From positions 17,748-81,747 of the forward strand of contig DATJOX010000057.1 of the NCBI GenBank assembly GCA_035506675.1: 64,000 nt of DNA, given 5' to 3'. A program made the position numbers and the translations under genes. The notes under the pieces were generated by a model. That model was not told the origin of the DNA. It worked only from the letters and a program-made list of their open reading frames with translations, and did not search any database. Positions 34,285 through 61,814 of this stretch are shown here, piece by piece (position 1 is the stretch's first letter; each line of letters begins with the position of its first letter). This stretch comes from Methanomassiliicoccales archaeon (GTDB taxonomy: Archaea > Thermoplasmatota > Thermoplasmata > Methanomassiliicoccales > UBA472).

Positions 34285-35028
34285 CTACTTGGAGCAGACA
34301 GGGCATTTCTCGTCGCGTTCGACCGGCACGACCTCGAACGAATTGCATTCCAGGTCGACAACCAGGAGCCTCGAAGCGAGAGGCTCGCCGAATCCCGTTA
34401 TCAATTTGATCGCCTCAGACGCCTGAAGCGAGCCTATGAAACCTGCCGCGGCGCCAACCACCGGCGTCTCCCGTGCAAGCGTCGCGGTCTTCGCGAAAAG
34501 GCAACGGAGGCAGGGCGTTCTCCCAGGTATGATCGTCGTCAGCTGGCCGTGCATTCCTTCGACCGCTCCGTGCACGAAGGGCTTGCGGGCAGCGACACAG
34601 CATCCGTTCAACTCCATGCGCGTGTCGAAGTTGTCGGTGCAGTCGAGGATGACATCCGCATCGCCCATCAGCCTGGTCAGGTTGTCCGCGCTCACTCTCT
34701 CTTTCACCAGACGGACTCTGAGATCGGTGTTGAACTGCGTCAGCTTCTCCATCGCGCTCTCGACCTTCAACTGCGCCCCGTGCACGTCCTTCTCCCAGTG
34801 CAGGATTTGCCGGTTCAGATTGCTGAGCTCGACGACCTGATCATCGGCCAAGACCAGTTCTCCCACACCAGCAGCCGCAAGATACAATGCTGCCGGGGAG
34901 CCGAGACCGCCGACCCCAAGCACCCCGACCCTTGCGTCCTTCAGCCTTCGTTGGGCCTTCTCGCCGAACCCTTTCAGGTCAATCTGCCTGCGGAAGCGCG
35001 CTTTCTCGACCTCGGTCAGTCTCTCCAT
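34285..35028 (-). CDS. ThiF/MoeB/HesA E1-like adenylyltransferase (copy 1)
   Basis: RFRRQI, GVGGLG, SNLNRQ, DCTDN, CLRC, CPVC; start ATG 35028. Confidence 0.92.
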   Translation of the reverse strand: MERLTEVEKARFRRQIDLKGFGEKAQRRLKDARVGVLGVGGLGSPAALYLAAAGVGELVLADDQVVELSNLNRQILHWEKDVHGAQLKVESAMEKLTQFNTDLRVRLVKERVSADNLTRLMGDADVILDCTDNFDTRMELNGCCVAARKPFVHGAVEGMHGQLTTIIPGRTPCLRCLFAKTATLARETPVVGAAAGFIGSLQASEAIKLITGFGEPLASRLLVVDLECNSFEVVPVERDEKCPVCSK

Positions 35029-35212
35029 GCCGCTTGTCGAATGCTCCCAGATTTCAATAAATGTTTCCAGAGTCAGGATTTCGCGCACCGGATGGACAGC
35101 ACGATACGTATCGGACGTGACTGAGAACAGATTGCTGGCACTGCGAAATCGCTCAATAATGCAGAAAATGCTCATATAGTGCATTGCTGCTGCAAGCGCA
35201 CAAGGTGCCAAC

Positions 35213-36145
35213 ATGGCAGAAACTGTGATCACGGTCTCCGGCCTCACGAAGAGGTACGGAAGCCTCACCGCCGTCGACGCGATCTCGTTCGAAGTCTACG
35301 CAGGGGAAGTGTTCTCCTTGCTCGGGCCGAACGGAGCGGGCAAGACGACCACCGTCGAGATCCTCGAGTGCCTGCGTCCGAAGACCGCTGGCGACGTCAG
35401 GGTCCTCGGAATGGACATTGACAAGCAGGTGCGAGACATAAAGAAGCGCATCGGCGTACTCCCCCAGGACTTCAACGCCTTCGACCTCTTGACCGTCAAG
35501 GAGAACATCGACTACTTTGGGGACATGTTCGACAAGCGCTTGCCTGCCGACGACCTGATCAAGGCGATGGACCTGGAGGAGAAGCGAAACGAGTGGTTCA
35601 AGAACCTGTCCGGGGGACTCAAGCAGAGGACGGGCGTGGCGATCGCGATGGTCAACGACCCGGATATCGTTTTCCTGGACGAGCCCTCGACCGGTCTCGA
35701 CCCGCGCGCCCGTAGGGATGTCTGGGAGGTCATTCGGAACCTCAAGCAGAAGGGCAAGACCGTCATCCTCACCACCCACTACATGGAGGAGGCGGAGACG
35801 CTCTCCGACCGCCTCGGCATCATCGACCACGGCAAGTTCATCGCGTTCGGAACGCCGCGCGAGATCGTCGACAAGTATGGAACGGGTGCGAGGGTGATCG
35901 TTTCCAATTGCGACAACGTCTGCTGCGACACCCTGAAGGAGCAATGGCCACAGGGCGAGTACAAGGGCAAGGACGCAGTCATCCGTCTGGAGAACAAGAA
36001 CGCGCTCTCTGAGATCGTCTACACCCTCGACCGCTCCGGTGGCAATTACGAGCAGATACAGGTTACCAGGCCAACGCTCGAGGACGTATTCCTCAATCTA
36101 ACTGGACGCAAGATCGCGGAGGAGGCTGCTGCCAATGGCAAATAG
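35213..36145 (+). CDS. ABC-2-type exporter ATP-binding subunit
   Basis: GPNGAGKTT, LSGG, FLDEPSTGLD, TTHY. Confidence 0.95.
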   Translation: MAETVITVSGLTKRYGSLTAVDAISFEVYAGEVFSLLGPNGAGKTTTVEILECLRPKTAGDVRVLGMDIDKQVRDIKKRIGVLPQDFNAFDLLTVKENIDYFGDMFDKRLPADDLIKAMDLEEKRNEWFKNLSGGLKQRTGVAIAMVNDPDIVFLDEPSTGLDPRARRDVWEVIRNLKQKGKTVILTTHYMEEAETLSDRLGIIDHGKFIAFGTPREIVDKYGTGARVIVSNCDNVCCDTLKEQWPQGEYKGKDAVIRLENKNALSEIVYTLDRSGGNYEQIQVTRPTLEDVFLNLTGRKIAEEAAANGK

Positions 36146-37311: not shown

Positions 37312-37442
37312 TTTATATGTCACTTCCCGATACATCTCGGTCCCGGCGTGGGCTTGGGGGAAGTTGCGCCTTCGTTCGGGACGCACACCTCTTGTCATCA
37401 CTTACGAAGCGCAAGCGTTATTCCGCCCCATTTGGATGCCGG
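37312..37442 (+). promoter_or_regulatory. TATA box and ~100-nt self-complementary 5' leader of the aminotransferase
   Basis: TTTATAT 37312-37318; pairings CCGGCGT/ATGCCGG, TGGGG/CCCCA, TTGCGC/GCGCAA, TTCGT/ACGAA. Confidence 0.5.
37326..37347 (+). repeat. Degenerate direct copy of the tRNA-His 3' end
   Basis: ATCTCGGTCCCGGC (37334-37347) is identical to 18155-18168; both copies are preceded by CCCGA. Confidence 0.6.
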
Positions 37443-37446
37443 CCCG

Positions 37447-38604
37447 ATGAAGCTCACCGTCTCCGACCGCTCCCAGATGATAGTGCAGTCCGAGATCCGC
37501 AACATGACCCTGGAGTGCAACAAGATAGATGGCATCAATCTCGCGCAGGGAGTGTGCGACCTCGACGTGCCGTTGGAGGTCATCGGGGGCGCGCACCAAG
37601 CGGCGCTTCATGGCTATAACCAGTACACCCGGTACGACGGCCTTCCTGCCCTTCGAAAAGCACTGACCAAGAAGCTGCGCGACTTCAACCACATCGAGGT
37701 GGAGGAGGAGGGAAACATCATCGTGTCCGCTGGCGCGACCGGCGCATTCTATTGCGCCTGCCTCGCGCTCCTGAACCCCGGCGACGAATGCATCGTCTTC
37801 GAGCCGTTCTACGGATATCACGTCAACTCGCTCCTCGCGGTCGATGCGGTCCCCGTCTACGCGCAGCTTCGTCCACCGGACTGGAAGTTCGACATGAAGG
37901 AGCTCGAGTCGCTGGTTACGGGTCGCACCAAGGCGATGGTGGTGAACACCCCCTCGAACCCTTCCGGCAAGGTGTTTTCGCGGGAGGAGCTGCAGAAGCT
38001 CGCGGACTTCGCAAAGAAGCACGACATCTTCGTCTTTACCGACGAGATCTACGAGTACTTCGTGTACGACGGGCGAGAGCACGTCAGCATGGCGACTCTG
38101 GACGGAATGTTCAACCGCACCGTCACCATCGGCGGCTACTCGAAGACCTTCTCGATCACCGGCTGGCGCGTCGGTTATGCGGCCACCGCGAAGATCTGGG
38201 CGCAGATGATCGGGTACGTGAACGATCTCGTGTACGTGTGCGCTCCTGCTCCGCTGCAGATCGGCGTGGCGAACGGGATCGAGAAGCTTCCTGCGTCCTA
38301 CTACGAAGGCATCTGTGCCGATTATCAGAAGAAGCGTGGGCAGATATGCGAAGCCCTTGCGGCCGCTGGCCTCGCTCCATACGTTCCAGAAGGGTCGTAC
38401 TATGTGCTCGCGGACGTGTCGGCGGAGCCTGGAACGGACAGCAAGGACCGTGCGTTGCACATCCTCAAGAAAACGGGAGTCGCGAGTGTGCCCGGGAGCG
38501 CCTTCTATCACGACAAAAGCGGGGAGTCACTGACGCGCTTCTGTTTCGCGAAGAGAGACCAGGTGCTTGAGGACGCGTGCAAACGATTACGGCAGTACGA
38601 GTGA
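37447..38604 (+). CDS. PLP-dependent aminotransferase class I/II (aspartate aminotransferase-like)
   Basis: INLAQG, NTPSNPSG, DEIY, GYSKTFSITGWRVGY; start ATG 37447. Confidence 0.93.
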   Translation: MKLTVSDRSQMIVQSEIRNMTLECNKIDGINLAQGVCDLDVPLEVIGGAHQAALHGYNQYTRYDGLPALRKALTKKLRDFNHIEVEEEGNIIVSAGATGAFYCACLALLNPGDECIVFEPFYGYHVNSLLAVDAVPVYAQLRPPDWKFDMKELESLVTGRTKAMVVNTPSNPSGKVFSREELQKLADFAKKHDIFVFTDEIYEYFVYDGREHVSMATLDGMFNRTVTIGGYSKTFSITGWRVGYAATAKIWAQMIGYVNDLVYVCAPAPLQIGVANGIEKLPASYYEGICADYQKKRGQICEALAAAGLAPYVPEGSYYVLADVSAEPGTDSKDRALHILKKTGVASVPGSAFYHDKSGESLTRFCFAKRDQVLEDACKRLRQYE

Positions 38605-57345: not shown

Positions 57346-57621
57346 TCAGCCGCCCGCCATCGGTGGGAATAGAATGATGTCATCGCCTTCTTTGACTCTC
57401 GTCGCCAGGCCACCGGTCTCTTTCACGCTCTTTCCGTTCACCATCATGCTCACATATGGACGAAGGTCGCCCTCGCTCATCGCCGCTCTCCCGAGCTCTG
57501 GATGCGCCTGCGCAAGCGCGGCGAGAACGTCCCCCGCGGTATCGCCCTTCGCCTCGATCTCCAGCACTTTCTCGCCAGCGATGTAGCGGAATTGACCGAA
57601 CAGCTTCACACTGACCTTCGT
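57346..57621 (-). CDS. MoaD/ThiS/SAMP ubiquitin-like sulfur carrier
   Basis: KVSVKLFGQFR..VNG..FPPMAGG* with C-terminal di-Gly; start either ACG 57621 or GTG 57609. Confidence 0.92.
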   Translation of the reverse strand, partial: TKVSVKLFGQFRYIAGEKVLEIEAKGDTAGDVLAALAQAHPELGRAAMSEGDLRPYVSMMVNGKSVKETGGLATRVKEGDDIILFPPMAGG

Positions 57622-58412
57622 AGGGATCCCCCCTCGCCATGCGGTTCGAGAGAACAGCAGGCACTGCAGCGCGAATCGCGCCTGATCTCCAGCTCGTGGA
57701 ACTCCATGTATTCGCCATCGTATACCAGGAGTCGGTTCTCGAGCGTCCTCCCCACACCCGTGACGACCTTCACCGCCTCCGTGACTTGTAGGGCGCCGAG
57801 AACGCCGGCAGTTGCCCCCAGGATCGGGAAGACCTCCTTCGGCGGGACGTGTGGGAACACGCACTCCAGGCATGGAGTCCTCCCTGGAACGAAAGTTGAC
57901 ATGCGCCCCTCCATACCCCAGACCGAGGCATGGATGAAGGGGATGCGGTGTTTCAATGACGCACGGTTCAGCAGAAACCTCGTGGGGAAGTTGTCCACCG
58001 CGTCGACGATCAGGTCGTGCCCCGCGGTCAGATCTAGAACGTTGCCTTCATCGATCGTGCCCTTGAAAACGTTCACCTCGATGTGCTCGTTGATCTTCAT
58101 CAACTTGTCCCGCCCGCTCTCGACCTTCGGCCTGCCCACATCCTTGTCCCAGTGAAGGATTTGCCTGTTCAGGTTGCTGAGATCCACGACGTCCAGATCC
58201 GCGAGCGTTATGTGCCCGAAACCTGCGACCGCGAGGTAGATCGCGACTGGGCTTCCCAGTCCTCCGGCGCCGGCGACGAAGATCCTCGCGTTCTTGAGCT
58301 TCCGCTGCCCCTCCTCGCCGATGCCCTTGATCAAGATCTGGCGAGCGTATCGCTTGCGGTCGTACTCGTCCAAATCCGCGGTGATGGGTCGACTAGGCGA
58401 TGCCGTCGTCAT
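57606..58412 (-). CDS. ThiF/MoeB E1-like adenylyltransferase (copy 2)
   Basis: RYARQI, GAGGLG, SNLNRQ, DAVDN, CLEC, CSAC; overlaps both neighbours. Confidence 0.93.
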   Translation of the reverse strand: MTTASPSRPITADLDEYDRKRYARQILIKGIGEEGQRKLKNARIFVAGAGGLGSPVAIYLAVAGFGHITLADLDVVDLSNLNRQILHWDKDVGRPKVESGRDKLMKINEHIEVNVFKGTIDEGNVLDLTAGHDLIVDAVDNFPTRFLLNRASLKHRIPFIHASVWGMEGRMSTFVPGRTPCLECVFPHVPPKEVFPILGATAGVLGALQVTEAVKVVTGVGRTLENRLLVYDGEYMEFHELEIRRDSRCSACCSLEPHGEGGSLRRSV

Positions 58413-59340
58413 AGTGAGGCCTCCCAGGATGTGCCTTCCGGATGAACCGGTGCTCGAATATCTCTTTCTCTGGCAGAAGGCGCGAGATATAGCTCATGTC
58501 CTTGAGCACCTTCACGAACACCATGGTCGACTGGACGTACTGGGACGGCAGCGCCGCGCAGTACTTCGGCGACACCTTGTATGTCTCGAGCACGTACTCC
58601 GGATCGACGGTCTGCACGAGGCGGGAAACGATCCTAGCCGCCGCATGTGGGTCCTCCCGAACGAAGGCGCAGGCGCGCTCGTGCTGTTGAAGGAACTTGA
58701 TGACGGTATCATCGTCCCGCATCAGCGACGCGCTCACCAGAATCCCGTAGCTCGGGTTGTATGGCCACAGCTTGCTCGGAGGCACGACGATCTTGGTGTT
58801 CGCAAACCTTCTCGAAGCGACTGCCAGAGGAGGTGTGCCAATGGCCGCCGGAAGCTCTCGGTCGGTGATCGCCTCGAGCACGAAATCCGCCCACTGGTAG
58901 TTCTTGACCTCGATGTCATAGCCAGATTCTCGCACTATGTCCCGCGCGATCACATCGTGGATCGAACCCTTTGGGGGGGTGCCGATTGCCTTTCCGTCGA
59001 ATTGCTTTAGCACCTCGTCGATGCTCCCTAGCTCCTCAAGCCCGAGATATTCGGCCTGCGCGATCATCACCGTGCCTTCGACATGCCCTCCTGCCACGCA
59101 CTTGATCGGCACTCCGCGGGCGATGCCGACCACGGCCGGCGGCAAGCCGAGGTATCCCAGATCAATCATGCCGCCCTCGAATGCTTTGACAATGTCGGGG
59201 CCTGAGGCGAACAGCCTCCATTGGACGTCGAGGCCTTCCTTCTGCAGCCAGTCGACACCCTCCAGGATGAAAGAGGTATGGTAGAAGGTCGAGAGATGGC
59301 CGATGCGTAGGGGCGCGTCGCGCATGCTGATTGGAGGCAC
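58393..59340 (-). CDS. NMT1/THI5/SsuA-fold binding protein lacking a signal peptide
   Basis: LRIGHLSTFYH, FASGPDIVKAF..G.IDLGYLGLPP, TPPKGSIHD, WPYNP; in-frame TGA immediately upstream of the GTG. Confidence 0.85.
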   Translation of the reverse strand: MPPISMRDAPLRIGHLSTFYHTSFILEGVDWLQKEGLDVQWRLFASGPDIVKAFEGGMIDLGYLGLPPAVVGIARGVPIKCVAGGHVEGTVMIAQAEYLGLEELGSIDEVLKQFDGKAIGTPPKGSIHDVIARDIVRESGYDIEVKNYQWADFVLEAITDRELPAAIGTPPLAVASRRFANTKIVVPPSKLWPYNPSYGILVSASLMRDDDTVIKFLQQHERACAFVREDPHAAARIVSRLVQTVDPEYVLETYKVSPKYCAALPSQYVQSTMVFVKVLKDMSYISRLLPEKEIFEHRFIRKAHPGRPHYDDGIA

Positions 59341-59367
59341 TCAGGACGTTCTTCATTGTTTTGTTGC

Positions 59368-59477: not shown

Positions 59478-60020
59478 CTAGATCGCTTTTGCGAACCTGC
59501 TGATGATATCCCTCGGCCCCATGGGCACCAGCGGAACATCCGCGTTGCCCGCCTCGACCTCTGCAACGATTGCGCCGGAAGGCATTTCCTTGACAAGCTT
59601 GTGAAGATGAGAGACGGAGGAAGTCCTTCGCACCGGCGCTATACCGGCAGCCTTCGCGAGCTCGCTCAACTTGATCCCGCATGACGATGCGCTCGGCTGG
59701 CAACCCGTCGAGCCATAGACCCCGTTGTCCATGATAACCAGAAGATAGTTGCCCCGGGCCTTGGCGGAGATCGTCGTCAGGCTGCCTAGGTTCATCAGAA
59801 TCGACCCGTCGCCGTCGATCGCTATCACCCTTCTGTCCTCGCGCGCGATCGCCAGGCCAAGACCGATTGAAGATGCCAAGCCCATCGATCCGAGCATATA
59901 GAAATTACGATCGCGATCGGCAACGCGGAACAGCTCCCTCGACGGAAACCCAAGGTTGCACACGATGAGTCCATCACCAGCCGCTTCGGCCACCGCTCGG
60001 ATCGCATCGATGCGTCTCAT
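59478..60020 (-). CDS. comE: Sulfopyruvate decarboxylase beta subunit
   Basis: NFYMLGSMG, DGDGSILMNLG (TPP motif), DNGVYGSTG; ATG 60020 overlaps the comD TGA. Confidence 0.9.
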   Translation of the reverse strand: MRRIDAIRAVAEAAGDGLIVCNLGFPSRELFRVADRDRNFYMLGSMGLASSIGLGLAIAREDRRVIAIDGDGSILMNLGSLTTISAKARGNYLLVIMDNGVYGSTGCQPSASSCGIKLSELAKAAGIAPVRRTSSVSHLHKLVKEMPSGAIVAEVEAGNADVPLVPMGPRDIISRFAKAI

Positions 60021-60517
60021 TGCGACCTCCAGAAGGCATTGTCCAGGAGTATCGCGACCGGCTTCCTCTCCCCTATTGATCGGCTCCAGCCTCCGACGAT
60101 CGCCTGTTCCGCTTCGCCCGGCCCCGGCTTGATCGCCGGAATCCCCATCGATCTCAGCAGCGGCTCCGTCAGCAGGCCCATCGGCACCTGGGCTGAGACC
60201 TCTTCGCCCTCGACCCCCCTGTGACTGACGATTATCAACAACGGGATTCCATAGAGCAGATCGAGCGAGGCGAGGGCGTTGATCGAATTGCCTAGGCCGG
60301 AGTTCTGCATGAGCAGTGCTGGCTTCATCCCGCCCAGGTACGCGCCGGCGCATATCCCGACACCCTCCTCTTCCCTCGAGACCGCGAGATGCCGGATCGA
60401 CGTGTCGGCCTCGATGAGAGCTATCAGATCAGTCAGGTTGACGCAGGGCACGCTGGTGACTATGCCTATGCCGATCTTCTTCATCCCGGAGAAGACCTCG
60501 TTCGCTTGAGCATTCAC
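60017..60517 (-). CDS. comD: Sulfopyruvate decarboxylase alpha subunit
   Basis: VPC, REEEGVGICAGAYLGG, LMQNSGLGN, HRG. Confidence 0.9.
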   Translation of the reverse strand: MNAQANEVFSGMKKIGIGIVTSVPCVNLTDLIALIEADTSIRHLAVSREEEGVGICAGAYLGGMKPALLMQNSGLGNSINALASLDLLYGIPLLIIVSHRGVEGEEVSAQVPMGLLTEPLLRSMGIPAIKPGPGEAEQAIVGGWSRSIGERKPVAILLDNAFWRSQ

Positions 60518-60557: not shown

Positions 60558-61814
60558 TCAAGCGGCACACCTCCTCAACTCCCTTTGCACATCGGAGGCG
60601 AGCGCCTTGACATCTGCTCCTGCTTTCTTAACCTTGAGATCGAAATGCAGTTGCGTCACACCTCGCTCCGCCCTGAGCAACCTCTCTCCCCCACCAGTAA
60701 TGTTCAGCAGCACGACGTCTTCCGGGCCGACGCTTCCAGATTCGGCCGACTTCACCAAAGCGGCGACCGCGATCGCCGCCGCCGGCATAACGTCTACGCC
60801 CTCCGCTCTCTCGAAGAGCCTACGAGCGCGTTCTGCCTCGTCATTCGTGATTCCCTGGACAGACCCATGAGTGGATTTGAGGGCATCAATCACCCCTCCC
60901 TTCTGCGTGATCGGCGGCCTGCGGTTGAACAGCACCTCATCGTACATCCCCTTCGGGCATGCGGGATCGATCACGGCGTCCTTCAGAGCGGCGAGTATCG
61001 GCGCACAAGGCAGGTTCTGCGCAAGGTCCAGTACCGGCATCGCGCTCCCGAACCGCCCGTCCCGAATCAACCTCATCGACGCCTCCCAAGCGGCGATCGC
61101 TCCGGTCGCGCTCCCCACCGCCTGAACGTAGCGGTCCGGGATCCGGCCGATGGTGAGCGCTGCCTCCAGCATCACCGTCCCCATCCCGTCCCTTCGCGCG
61201 ATGTTCCTTGCCCCTCCCTCCGGGACGAAACCCTCTAGGCATGCGAGCTGTTCAGCGAGGACGATCGCGTCCGTGTAGTCGCCATCGACCGCAATCGTGC
61301 AAATTGTCTCGTGTCGTGATCCTTCGCCAGGCAACCATATCTTGTTCATCGCTGTAGCCGGCACCACCAGCGCCAGAGGTCGTCGGGTGACTGAGCAGGC
61401 GTGCGCGAATGCTCGACCGGTGTTCCCGGCGGAGGCGACGACGAGGATGTCCTCTTTCCCTTTTTCGATGAGACGCTCGACCGTCGGCGCCGCCTCCAGC
61501 TCTTTGAAGCTGCAGGTATGGAAAAGGGCGTTCTTGTCAGGCCAATAGCCATTGAACGATACGAACAGGTGCTTGATGCCGACCTCGGAGGCGAAGCCCT
61601 CGCTACGATAGGTCACGCTTCTTCCGTTCAACGCGGGAATGATGTCATTGGTCGGCAACCAGTCGAGGAACTTCCACATGCCAGGAAGATCCCTCGGAGT
61701 CAATCGGATCGCCGAATACTCGGCCCTGAGGAAGTGTGGATCGCTCGGACATGTGATCGCATGCTGGTCGCATTCGGAGCTGCAGCCCAGACAGCGCACG
61801 ACGTACTTCTTCAT
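60558..61814 (-). CDS. Cysteate synthase (threonine synthase-like, PLP)
   Basis: NGYWP, TCSFKELEA (PLP Lys), ASAGNTGRAFA, EGGARN, VLLNITGGG; adjacent to comDE. Confidence 0.9.
   Translation of the reverse strand: MKKYVVRCLGCSSECDQHAITCPSDPHFLRAEYSAIRLTPRDLPGMWKFLDWLPTNDIIPALNGRSVTYRSEGFASEVGIKHLFVSFNGYWPDKNALFHTCSFKELEAAPTVERLIEKGKEDILVVASAGNTGRAFAHACSVTRRPLALVVPATAMNKIWLPGEGSRHETICTIAVDGDYTDAIVLAEQLACLEGFVPEGGARNIARRDGMGTVMLEAALTIGRIPDRYVQAVGSATGAIAAWEASMRLIRDGRFGSAMPVLDLAQNLPCAPILAALKDAVIDPACPKGMYDEVLFNRRPPITQKGGVIDALKSTHGSVQGITNDEAERARRLFERAEGVDVMPAAAIAVAALVKSAESGSVGPEDVVLLNITGGGERLLRAERGVTQLHFDLKVKKAGADVKALASDVQRELRRCAA

Follow-up and report, generated by a model that had tools for sequence, protein, structure and literature searches.

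In the present study, we analyzed a window of 64,000 nucleotides from the genome of a Methanomassiliicoccales archaeon (GenBank assembly GCA_035506675.1, contig DATJOX010000057.1, positions 17,748 to 81,747 of the forward strand), which contains a gene for a protein with the fold of the SsuA/NMT1 binding proteins that lacks a leader sequence (hereafter the leaderless gene). On balance, we favour the view that this protein is a non-orthologous coenzyme M (CoM) synthase, or the substrate-binding catalytic subunit of one, which replaces or partners the enzyme MMP16/ComF. Three independent lines of evidence, i.e. linkage to the genes of the preceding biosynthetic steps, a distribution complementary to that of MMP16, and the occupation of the MMP16 slot in operons, all converge on a role at the step from sulfoacetaldehyde to CoM. 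The original prediction, which was made from the sequence alone, had already linked the gene to CoM intermediates, and these three lines now strongly support that link. In Methanosarcina and Methanocaldococcus, the CoM synthase is MMP16/ComF, which was recognized by co-occurrence and clustering of its gene with sulfoacetaldehyde-forming genes (PMC12068725). The same co-occurrence and clustering were found for the leaderless gene.

In the window, the genes for cysteate synthase (CS), ComD, ComE, the leaderless protein, a ThiF-type E1 enzyme, and a SAMP1-like ubiquitin-like protein (Ubl) follow each other in this order on the minus strand, with a gap of 137-152 nt between ComE and the leaderless gene. 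CS converts O-phosphoserine and sulfite to L-cysteate. For comparison, 108 loci were examined, and genes were called at several of them. The leaderless gene adjoined CS/ComDE in at least five lineages from four phyla. In the Archaeoglobi (Geoglobus ahangari and metagenome-assembled genomes, MAGs), the genes for CS, ComD, ComE, and the leaderless protein were tightly packed with gaps of 3-24 nt; the same order was present in a Hydrothermarchaeales MAG, and in the bathyarchaeon Hecatella the gene was adjacent to CS-ComDE in divergent orientation. About 30 Methanoregula loci had the arrangement ComDE-CS-FeS(COG2000)-HypB/CobW GTPase-ABC (ATP-binding cassette) ATPase, next to a divergent pair of an HTH_3 (helix-turn-helix) gene and the leaderless gene. 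At the only locus of this type for which downstream genes were called (L121), the leaderless gene was followed by the gene for a class-I aminotransferase, the enzyme type that is required for the conversion of cysteate to sulfopyruvate.

Genes for Ubl and/or E1 were found beside the leaderless gene at 18 of the 108 loci, in several families (Methanocellaceae, Methanolobus, and others). In Methanocella arvoryzae and two further genomes, the leaderless gene, E1, and Ubl were united in one cluster with a trio of genes encoding an orphan ABC-type ATPase, a HypB/CobW-like GTPase, and a COG2000 Fe-S protein. The trio adjoined the leaderless gene at 26-31 of the 108 loci, and its colocalization with CoM genes has been described (PMC12068725). 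It accompanied either MMP16 or the leaderless gene, together with CS/ComDE (L059:4242-6405; L121:4282-6445; L125, L126; L111, L118), and has the appearance of a module that inserts metal or supplies electrons for the last step of CoM synthesis. A close homologue of the trio was not found in the window genome.

A phylogenetic profile against the com genes, which had been proposed together with the original prediction, was generated for 401 genomes of Halobacteriota. The searches of these genomes covered the leaderless family, MMP16 (TIGR03287, E <= 1e-60), and ComE (TIGR03846), and the search profile for the leaderless family was redone so that it was centred on a Methanoperedens genome. Of the 401 genomes, 67 carried the leaderless gene, and none of them had more than one copy. 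ComE was present in 60 of these carriers and in 209 genomes in total. The leaderless gene was found in 35 of the 41 genomes that contained ComE and lacked MMP16, whereas it was found in 25 of the 168 genomes that contained both ComE and MMP16 (Fisher test for the contrast within ComE-containing genomes 1e-17, uncorrected for phylogeny) and in 7 of the 192 genomes without ComE. Six genomes had ComE but neither MMP16 nor the leaderless gene, and in three of them the ComE matches were only weak. Of the 48 named carriers, 45 lacked MMP16. The distribution of the leaderless gene is thus linked to ComE and complementary to MMP16. The 67 carriers include one genome (G644, locus L108) whose protein was discounted as a family member because it is an extracytoplasmic protein of a sister clade with a Tat (twin-arginine translocation)/lipobox leader; this genome contains neither ComE nor MMP16, so that the figures within the ComE-containing genomes are unaffected.

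These results can be compared with a published survey, which lists all Methanoperedenaceae as having comDE and CS and as lacking both mmp16 and cog1900, and in which mmp16 is also marked as absent for Methanocomedenaceae, Methanocella conradii, M. paludicola, and Methanoregula boonei (S1 table, PMC12068725). Both Methanoperedens and M. conradii (P0009) carry the leaderless gene. M. conradii grows with acetate and a CoM-free vitamin mix and does not require yeast extract (PMC3328440). Because it needs no added CoM and has no mmp16, this species therefore makes CoM without MMP16. The authors of the MMP16 study left room for "a non-orthologous enzyme" (PMC12068725).

The third line of evidence is the replacement of one gene by the other at the same position. 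At two loci with MMP16 and without the leaderless gene (L125 and L126), an HTH_3 gene lies beside the string ATPase-GTPase-FeS-MMP16-CS-ComD-ComE. These are clusters of the Methanomicrobiales type, and their proteins are 51-72% identical to the Methanoregula counterparts. The Methanoregula cluster matches them except that MMP16 is missing between the FeS and CS genes and that the leaderless gene is present after the HTH gene. Likewise, the order CS-ComD-ComE-MMP16 at a further locus (L127) parallels the order CS-ComD-ComE-leaderless gene that was observed elsewhere. Such slot replacement is a classical signature of non-orthologous displacement.

The cytoplasmic location of the protein follows from its N-terminus. 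The claim that an in-frame TGA directly precedes the start, leaving no room for a leader, was verified: positions 59341-59343 of the plus strand read "tca", so that on the minus strand GTG 59340 is immediately preceded by a TGA in frame. The probable start is ATG 59325, six codons further in (public gene call P0001, 310 aa), and the first beta strand is reached after 5-10 residues from either start. Neither a lipobox nor a signal peptide was found in the window protein, and a hydrophobic or membrane segment is absent (maximal Kyte-Doolittle mean over 19 residues 1.32). It had also been claimed that no permease or ATPase adjoins the gene; indeed, none is present within about 5 kb, where the neighbours are ComE, the ThiF-type E1, the Ubl, a PAS histidine kinase, and a GNAT protein. 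With respect to the ATPase, this needs the caveat that the leaderless gene of other lineages does have an orphan ABC-type ATPase, with no permease, beside it. Signal peptides in orthologues and a location of orthologues in ABC operons had been named beforehand as counter-evidence. Neither was observed: over 100 orthologues, which represent six or more lineages of archaea, were all free of signal peptides (alignments A1 and A2), and there was no permease at any locus examined.

The sequence of the leaderless protein matched the Pfam families NMT1_2 (50 bits) and NMT1 (PF09084, 30.3 bits, above the cut-off of 20.5), and it scored 84 bits against the SsuA family TIGR01728, far under the cut-off of 163.5. 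An AF2 model that was based on 36 sequences (pLDDT 96.3) has the class II two-lobe periplasmic-binding-protein fold. In a Foldseek search, TauA/SsuA structures were the best matches (TM 0.72-0.78, E about 1e-15), and Thi5 structures formed the second-best group. A plain sequence search of the Protein Data Bank (PDB) yielded a partial TauA match only, with weak similarity across the first lobe, and a profile search of the PDB had the zinc-bound Staphylococcus aureus protein 3UN6 as top match (E 1.4e-7).

Among 1.84 billion cluster representatives searched, 47 clusters were retrieved at E <= 1e-30. With identities of at least about 38%, the leaderless clade was sharply separated from two other groups, i.e. 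a sister clade, whose members have Tat/lipobox leaders and motifs built on Cys, and classical binding proteins with 24-30% identity and leaders of about 30 aa. The sister clade (P0136, P0141, P0155, P0157, P0159, P0160; L108:6004-6930) is 30-37% identical to the leaderless clade; its His motifs are replaced by ..LP(S/A)xCQ.. and ..NPCC.., and it has a conserved C-terminal tail ..P(E/K)LxxxVxG. It gives the impression of an extracytoplasmic relative with a probable redox or metal site of its own.

Conservation was determined for 34 sequences that cover all subclades (38-100% identity). Invariant residues were Y20, H21, C81, G84-G85-H86-x-E88-G89-T90, G125, H128-D129, N147, G168-T169-P170, N195-P196, Y198-G199, H220, S257-P258, and Y260; S126 and S197 had one exception each. 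The motifs HLSTFYH, CVAGGHVE, and SIHD that the original prediction had pointed out are thus all present, and their cores are invariant. Its suggestion that the three cysteines of the protein (81, 224, 261) would suit metal or persulfide chemistry stood in part: C81 is invariant, C261 is lost in one subgroup of Methanosarcinaceae only, and C224 is not conserved. Together with C261, the C-terminal H304-P-x3-H309-Y310 is missing only in this Methanolobus/Methanohalophilus subgroup (L110, L113-L116, L119), which always occurs with MMP16, directly adjoins the Ubl gene, and has E1 within 2 kb. The subgroup may have a reduced or altered function. The invariant His/Glu/Cys/Asp set of the family is absent from classical binding proteins, and the mean identity within the family across orders is 65%. 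On the level of conservation, this looks like a catalytic or metal site and not like a transport receptor. We lean towards the view that the SsuA/TauA sulfonate-binding fold gave rise to the leaderless protein, which would be cytoplasmic and resemble an enzyme.

The leaderless protein was also compared with characterized proteins. It shares the two-lobe fold with SsuA/TauA (2X26 and 6SSY of E. coli, 3KSX of Xanthomonas), but it is only 14-17% identical to them and has neither a leader or anchor nor a permease or transporter operon. In the Staphylococcus protein 3UN6, the motifs xTH(S/T), GHxEG, and SxH are the aligned counterparts of H21, H86/E88, and H128, and these shared residues are only candidate zinc ligands; unlike the leaderless protein, 3UN6 is an importer component with a leader at its N-terminus, so that the alignment begins at residue 34. 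The HMP-P synthase THI5/NMT1 (4H67, 4ESX) is a cytoplasmic enzyme of the same fold superfamily. However, the identity is about 15%, its reaction uses pyridoxal phosphate plus a histidine of THI5 itself, and the gene context here is that of CoM and not of thiamine. A further cytoplasmic enzyme with a binding-protein fold is the 2'-hydroxybiphenyl-2-sulfinate desulfinase DszB, which acts on the C-S bond of an organosulfur oxyanion. It differs in its substrate and cleaves rather than forms the C-S bond, and it was not among the top 50 structural matches of the leaderless model. MMP16/ComF (COG1900, TIGR03287) resembles the leaderless protein in its neighbours (CS, ComDE, and the trio), its operon slot, and its complementary distribution in ComE-containing genomes; in contrast, the two proteins are unrelated in sequence and fold, and the leaderless protein has no match to the Pfam or NCBIfam models of MMP16 and no ferredoxin-like domain. 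Lastly, the ThiS-ThiF-ThiG, MoaD-MoeB-MoaE, and CysO-MoeZ-CysM systems also comprise a beta-grasp Ubl that ends in GG and a ThiF-type E1 beside a presumed acceptor. Here, the presumed acceptor is outside the acceptor families known so far, and a thiocarboxylate as its sulfur source is putative.

The positions of the relevant genes are compiled in Table 1. The E1 gene overlaps the end of the leaderless gene by 20 nt, and the GTG start of the Ubl gene overlaps the stop of the E1 gene (GTGA). The E1 scored 232 bits against the SAMP-activating E1 model NF047750, which is below the cut-off; it has two CxxC pairs and no rhodanese domain. Including this one, the genome has three E1 genes, and the context of the second (window positions 34285-35268) gave no hint as to whether the Ubl/E1 pair is dedicated. 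The Ubl also matches ThiS (PF02597). A role of the pair in molybdenum cofactor synthesis in the window genome was rejected, as MoaE was not found by tblastn; in Methanoregula, the E1-Ubl pair near ComE has MoaE next to it. The window genome (1.97 Mb, 99% complete) is that of a methanogen, with McrA on the same contig. A search for RNA-seq runs returned solely DNA metagenomes of wetland and peat. A class I/II aminotransferase of 418 aa is encoded about 20 kb away from the cluster (37348-38604, plus strand) and is a candidate for the step from cysteate to sulfopyruvate; the gene directly beside the leaderless gene at the Methanoregula-type locus is similar to it. The genome also holds, on another contig, a canonical NitT/TauT transporter, whose binding protein has a membrane-type anchor at its N-terminal end and thus forms an explicit contrast to the leaderless protein. 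This system may be an importer of CoM or sulfonates, and its HTH protein is 37% identical to the HTH protein that precedes the leaderless gene in Methanoregula.

Table 1. Location of the leaderless gene, its neighbours, and the canonical transporter of the same genome
Feature	Position	Strand	Length, profile matches, composition
Leaderless SsuA/NMT1-fold protein, candidate CoM synthase	58393..59340	-	315 aa from GTG 59340
Cysteate synthase (CS)	60558..61814	-	TIGR03844 519 bits, cut-off 325
ComD, sulfopyruvate decarboxylase alpha subunit	60017..60517	-	TIGR03845 203.5 bits, cut-off 148
ComE, sulfopyruvate decarboxylase beta subunit	59478..60020	-	180 aa from ATG 60020; TIGR03846 223 bits, cut-off 221.5
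ThiF/MoeB/UbaA-type E1 adenylyltransferase	57606..58412	-	268 aa; PF00899 247 bits
SAMP1/MoaD-type Ubl sulfur carrier	57346..57609	-	87 aa, C-terminus ...PPMAGG; NF041918 SAMP1 81 bits, cut-off 60
NitT/TauT ABC system (outside the window)	contig C49:63575-66822		HTH_3 regulator, ATPase 256 aa, permease 277 aa, binding protein 365 aa

The window lineage is atypical for its phylum, in which the leaderless family is rare (2 of 301 genomes in a search centred on the window genome). The proteins of the module that consists of the leaderless gene, E1, and Ubl (57346-59340) are 63-76% identical to those of Methanocellaceae modules (L002, L053, L111). An old horizontal transfer that joined a Methanocellaceae-like module to the CS-ComDE operon is plausible, although the base composition of 0.603 is very close to the genome value of 0.601.

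How such a protein might make CoM can be outlined. CoM is taken up in Methanosarcina by an SsuA protein as part of the SsuABC system (PMC12068725), and therefore the fold can hold CoM. By analogy, the sulfonate-binding fold of the leaderless protein would fit both the substrate and the product of the reaction. The pocket in the cleft would anchor the sulfonate group of sulfoacetaldehyde, the product of ComDE, and a putative metal site specific to the family, formed by H21, H86, E88, and H128, with D129 and C81 nearby, would polarise the aldehyde and/or activate the sulfur. The sulfur could be supplied by sulfide or by the C-terminal thiocarboxylate of the SAMP1-like Ubl after charging by the ThiF-type E1. 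The resulting thio-adduct or thioaldehyde would then be reduced with two electrons to 2-mercaptoethanesulfonate, with the C81/C261 pair or an external donor, e.g. the ATPase/HypB-like GTPase/COG2000 Fe-S trio, as possible reductant. The specific version, that a binding-fold metalloenzyme makes CoM from sulfoacetaldehyde with the Ubl thiocarboxylate and is the missing synthase of the anaerobic methanotrophic archaea (ANME) 2a and 2d, Methanoregula, and Methanocella, is tentative. The same degree of doubt applies to its corollary that Geoglobus, Ferroglobus, Hydrothermarchaeales, and the bathyarchaeon, which lack methyl-coenzyme M reductase (MCR), also make CoM or a close thiol-sulfonate. In the literature collection that was searched, no paper links SsuA/NMT1-like proteins, thiocarboxylates, ThiF, or a Ubl/E1 pair to CoM synthesis.

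Several observations weigh against a role of the leaderless protein as CoM synthase. The window genome itself encodes a bona fide MMP16/ComF (contig C19, 452 bits), so that replacement is not strict, and MMP16 and the leaderless gene occur together in 25 of the sampled genomes, 14 of which have the variant without C261 and the C-terminal HPxxxHY. The phyletic signal is carried by about six or seven independent lineages, and the statistics are not phylogeny-corrected. Most lineages without MMP16 hold a paralogue of L-ASST, the COG1900 sulfurtransferase for L-aspartate semialdehyde, which is a possible back-up synthase, and it has been suggested that CoM arises in some lineages by uncatalysed chemistry. 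Methanoregula boonei 6A8 is reportedly CoM-requiring, which would count against the proposed role if this strain carries the gene; a literature search on this requirement gave nothing usable. The Ubl of the window may carry sulfur for general purposes and not for this pathway in particular, because it was the sole SAMP1-type match of the Ubl profile in the genome, with no second one found.

Gene context also provides counter-examples. In Methanoperedens, the leaderless gene precedes aroE-tyrA, away from the com genes. In Methanocella (L120:8087-8920; L081:8976-9809), it is followed by the gene for methanogenesis marker protein 8 (TIGR03275, function unknown) and preceded by genes for phosphoenolpyruvate (PEP) synthase, MfnA, and a purine (hypoxanthine/guanine) phosphoribosyltransferase. 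Archaea without McrA, which are not known to use CoM, have an intact CS-ComD-ComE-leaderless gene string or CS/ComDE (Geoglobus, Ferroglobus, Hecatella, and Hydrothermarchaeales; clusters at L102, L103, L104, L106, and L107 of Geoglobus and Archaeoglobi MAGs, at L068 of Hydrothermarchaeales, and at L016 of Hecatella), which hints at synthesis of CoM, or of a sulfonate related to it, in organisms that have no MCR. In Ferroglobus, the leaderless gene overlaps a gene for a MiaB/MtaB-type methylthiotransferase, with Sua5 alongside. Conversely, five MCR-positive Archaeoglobaceae MAGs contain the leaderless gene, and ComE was undetected in them. In one of these (L105:5998-10649), the leaderless gene overlaps a radical-SAM gene and comes after genes for RACo and an MtrH-like methyltransferase, and neither ComE nor MMP16 was found in the genome.

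For these reasons, three other functions keep some weight. One is that of an enzyme that acts on CoM itself, i.e. a metal-dependent, thiol-activating alkyl or methyl transferase or a salvage enzyme, or that makes another sulfoacetaldehyde-derived sulfonate in archaea without MCR. In its favour are the presence of MCR without ComE in the five Archaeoglobaceae MAGs, with the overlap to a radical-SAM gene near MtrH and RACo, and the presence of CS/ComDE without MCR in Geoglobus and Ferroglobus; activation of the CoM thiol by zinc is known from MtaA-type and epoxyalkane:CoM transferase chemistry. However, such an enzyme would not explain why the gene is specifically retained in lineages that lack MMP16 and why it replaces MMP16 beside ComE, and the leaderless gene is absent from most methanogens. 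We thus regard this function as unlikely.

Slightly less probable still is that the protein is the ligand-sensing half of a split regulator, which would sense CoM, sulfoacetaldehyde, or sulfite and control the divergent com operon together with the upstream HTH_3 protein. LysR-type regulators have the same fold as effector domain. At about 26 loci of Methanoregulaceae and Methanosphaerula, a same-strand HTH_3 gene is indeed located 0-100 nt upstream of the leaderless gene, divergent from ATPase-GTPase-FeS-CS-ComDE, and a homologue of the Methanoregula HTH protein adjoins the canonical NitT/TauT transporter in the window genome. But the loci L125 and L126 keep the same HTH gene at the same place, with MMP16 and without the leaderless gene, and therefore the HTH protein does not need the leaderless gene. 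An adjacent HTH gene was not present in the window or at the loci of Archaeoglobi, Hydrothermarchaeales, or Methanoperedens. In addition, neither the complementarity to MMP16 nor the presence in its operon slot would be expected of a sensor, and the invariant His/Glu/Cys/Asp set together with the high identity across orders looks more catalytic.

A somewhat lower probability is assigned to a cytoplasmic, non-catalytic carrier or chaperone of a sulfonate or a reactive sulfur oxyanion, which could, e.g., deliver toxic sulfite to cysteate synthase or buffer sulfoacetaldehyde. Ligands of the fold family include sulfonates, nitrate, and bicarbonate, the leaderless gene is linked to the sulfite-consuming cysteate synthase, and it also occurs in non-methanogens with CS/ComDE. 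Against this, 143 of the 168 genomes with ComE and MMP16 manage without the gene, and many of these taxa are listed as having CS in the S1 table, so that cysteate synthase does not need the leaderless protein. Moreover, the complementarity to MMP16 and the linkage to Ubl/E1 and to the trio would be left unexplained, and the MCR-positive Archaeoglobaceae MAGs retain the gene without ComE. Lastly, an ordinary transporter binding protein for the uptake of CoM or sulfonates, with a missed leader or a distant transporter, is essentially excluded, even though the source annotation and the public databases label the family "ABC transporter substrate-binding protein", an ABC-type ATPase is often near the gene, and SsuABC imports CoM in Methanosarcina (PMC12068725), because a stop codon in frame precedes the start, the clade has no leader, lipobox, or anchor, unlike the sister clade and the classical relatives, a permease adjoins the gene at none of the loci examined, the TIGR01728 score is far under the cut-off, and a role in uptake would leave the tight operons with biosynthetic genes unaccounted for.

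It was only in 2019-2025 that the last step of CoM synthesis was attributed to MMP16, and it was conceded that there are back-up routes that lack an explanation. Several clades of the methane cycle have the precursor pathway and no MMP16, including the nitrate- or metal-dependent ANME-2d, in which COG1900 proteins are wholly absent, the marine ANME-2a/b, Methanoregula of peat, and Methanocella of rice fields. The leaderless gene is the best candidate for the missing last enzyme of these clades, and this gap thereby becomes directly testable. New here is the functional hypothesis of a binding-fold protein that may have turned into a cytoplasmic enzyme, with THI5 as precedent. If true, this would represent a new reaction type for the binding-protein fold and a new acceptor enzyme for sulfur transfer from Ubl thiocarboxylates. 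It would also correct the transporter label on thousands of database entries, improve the genome-based prediction of CoM auxotrophy, and pose the question of which role CoM-pathway genes have in non-methanogenic archaea.

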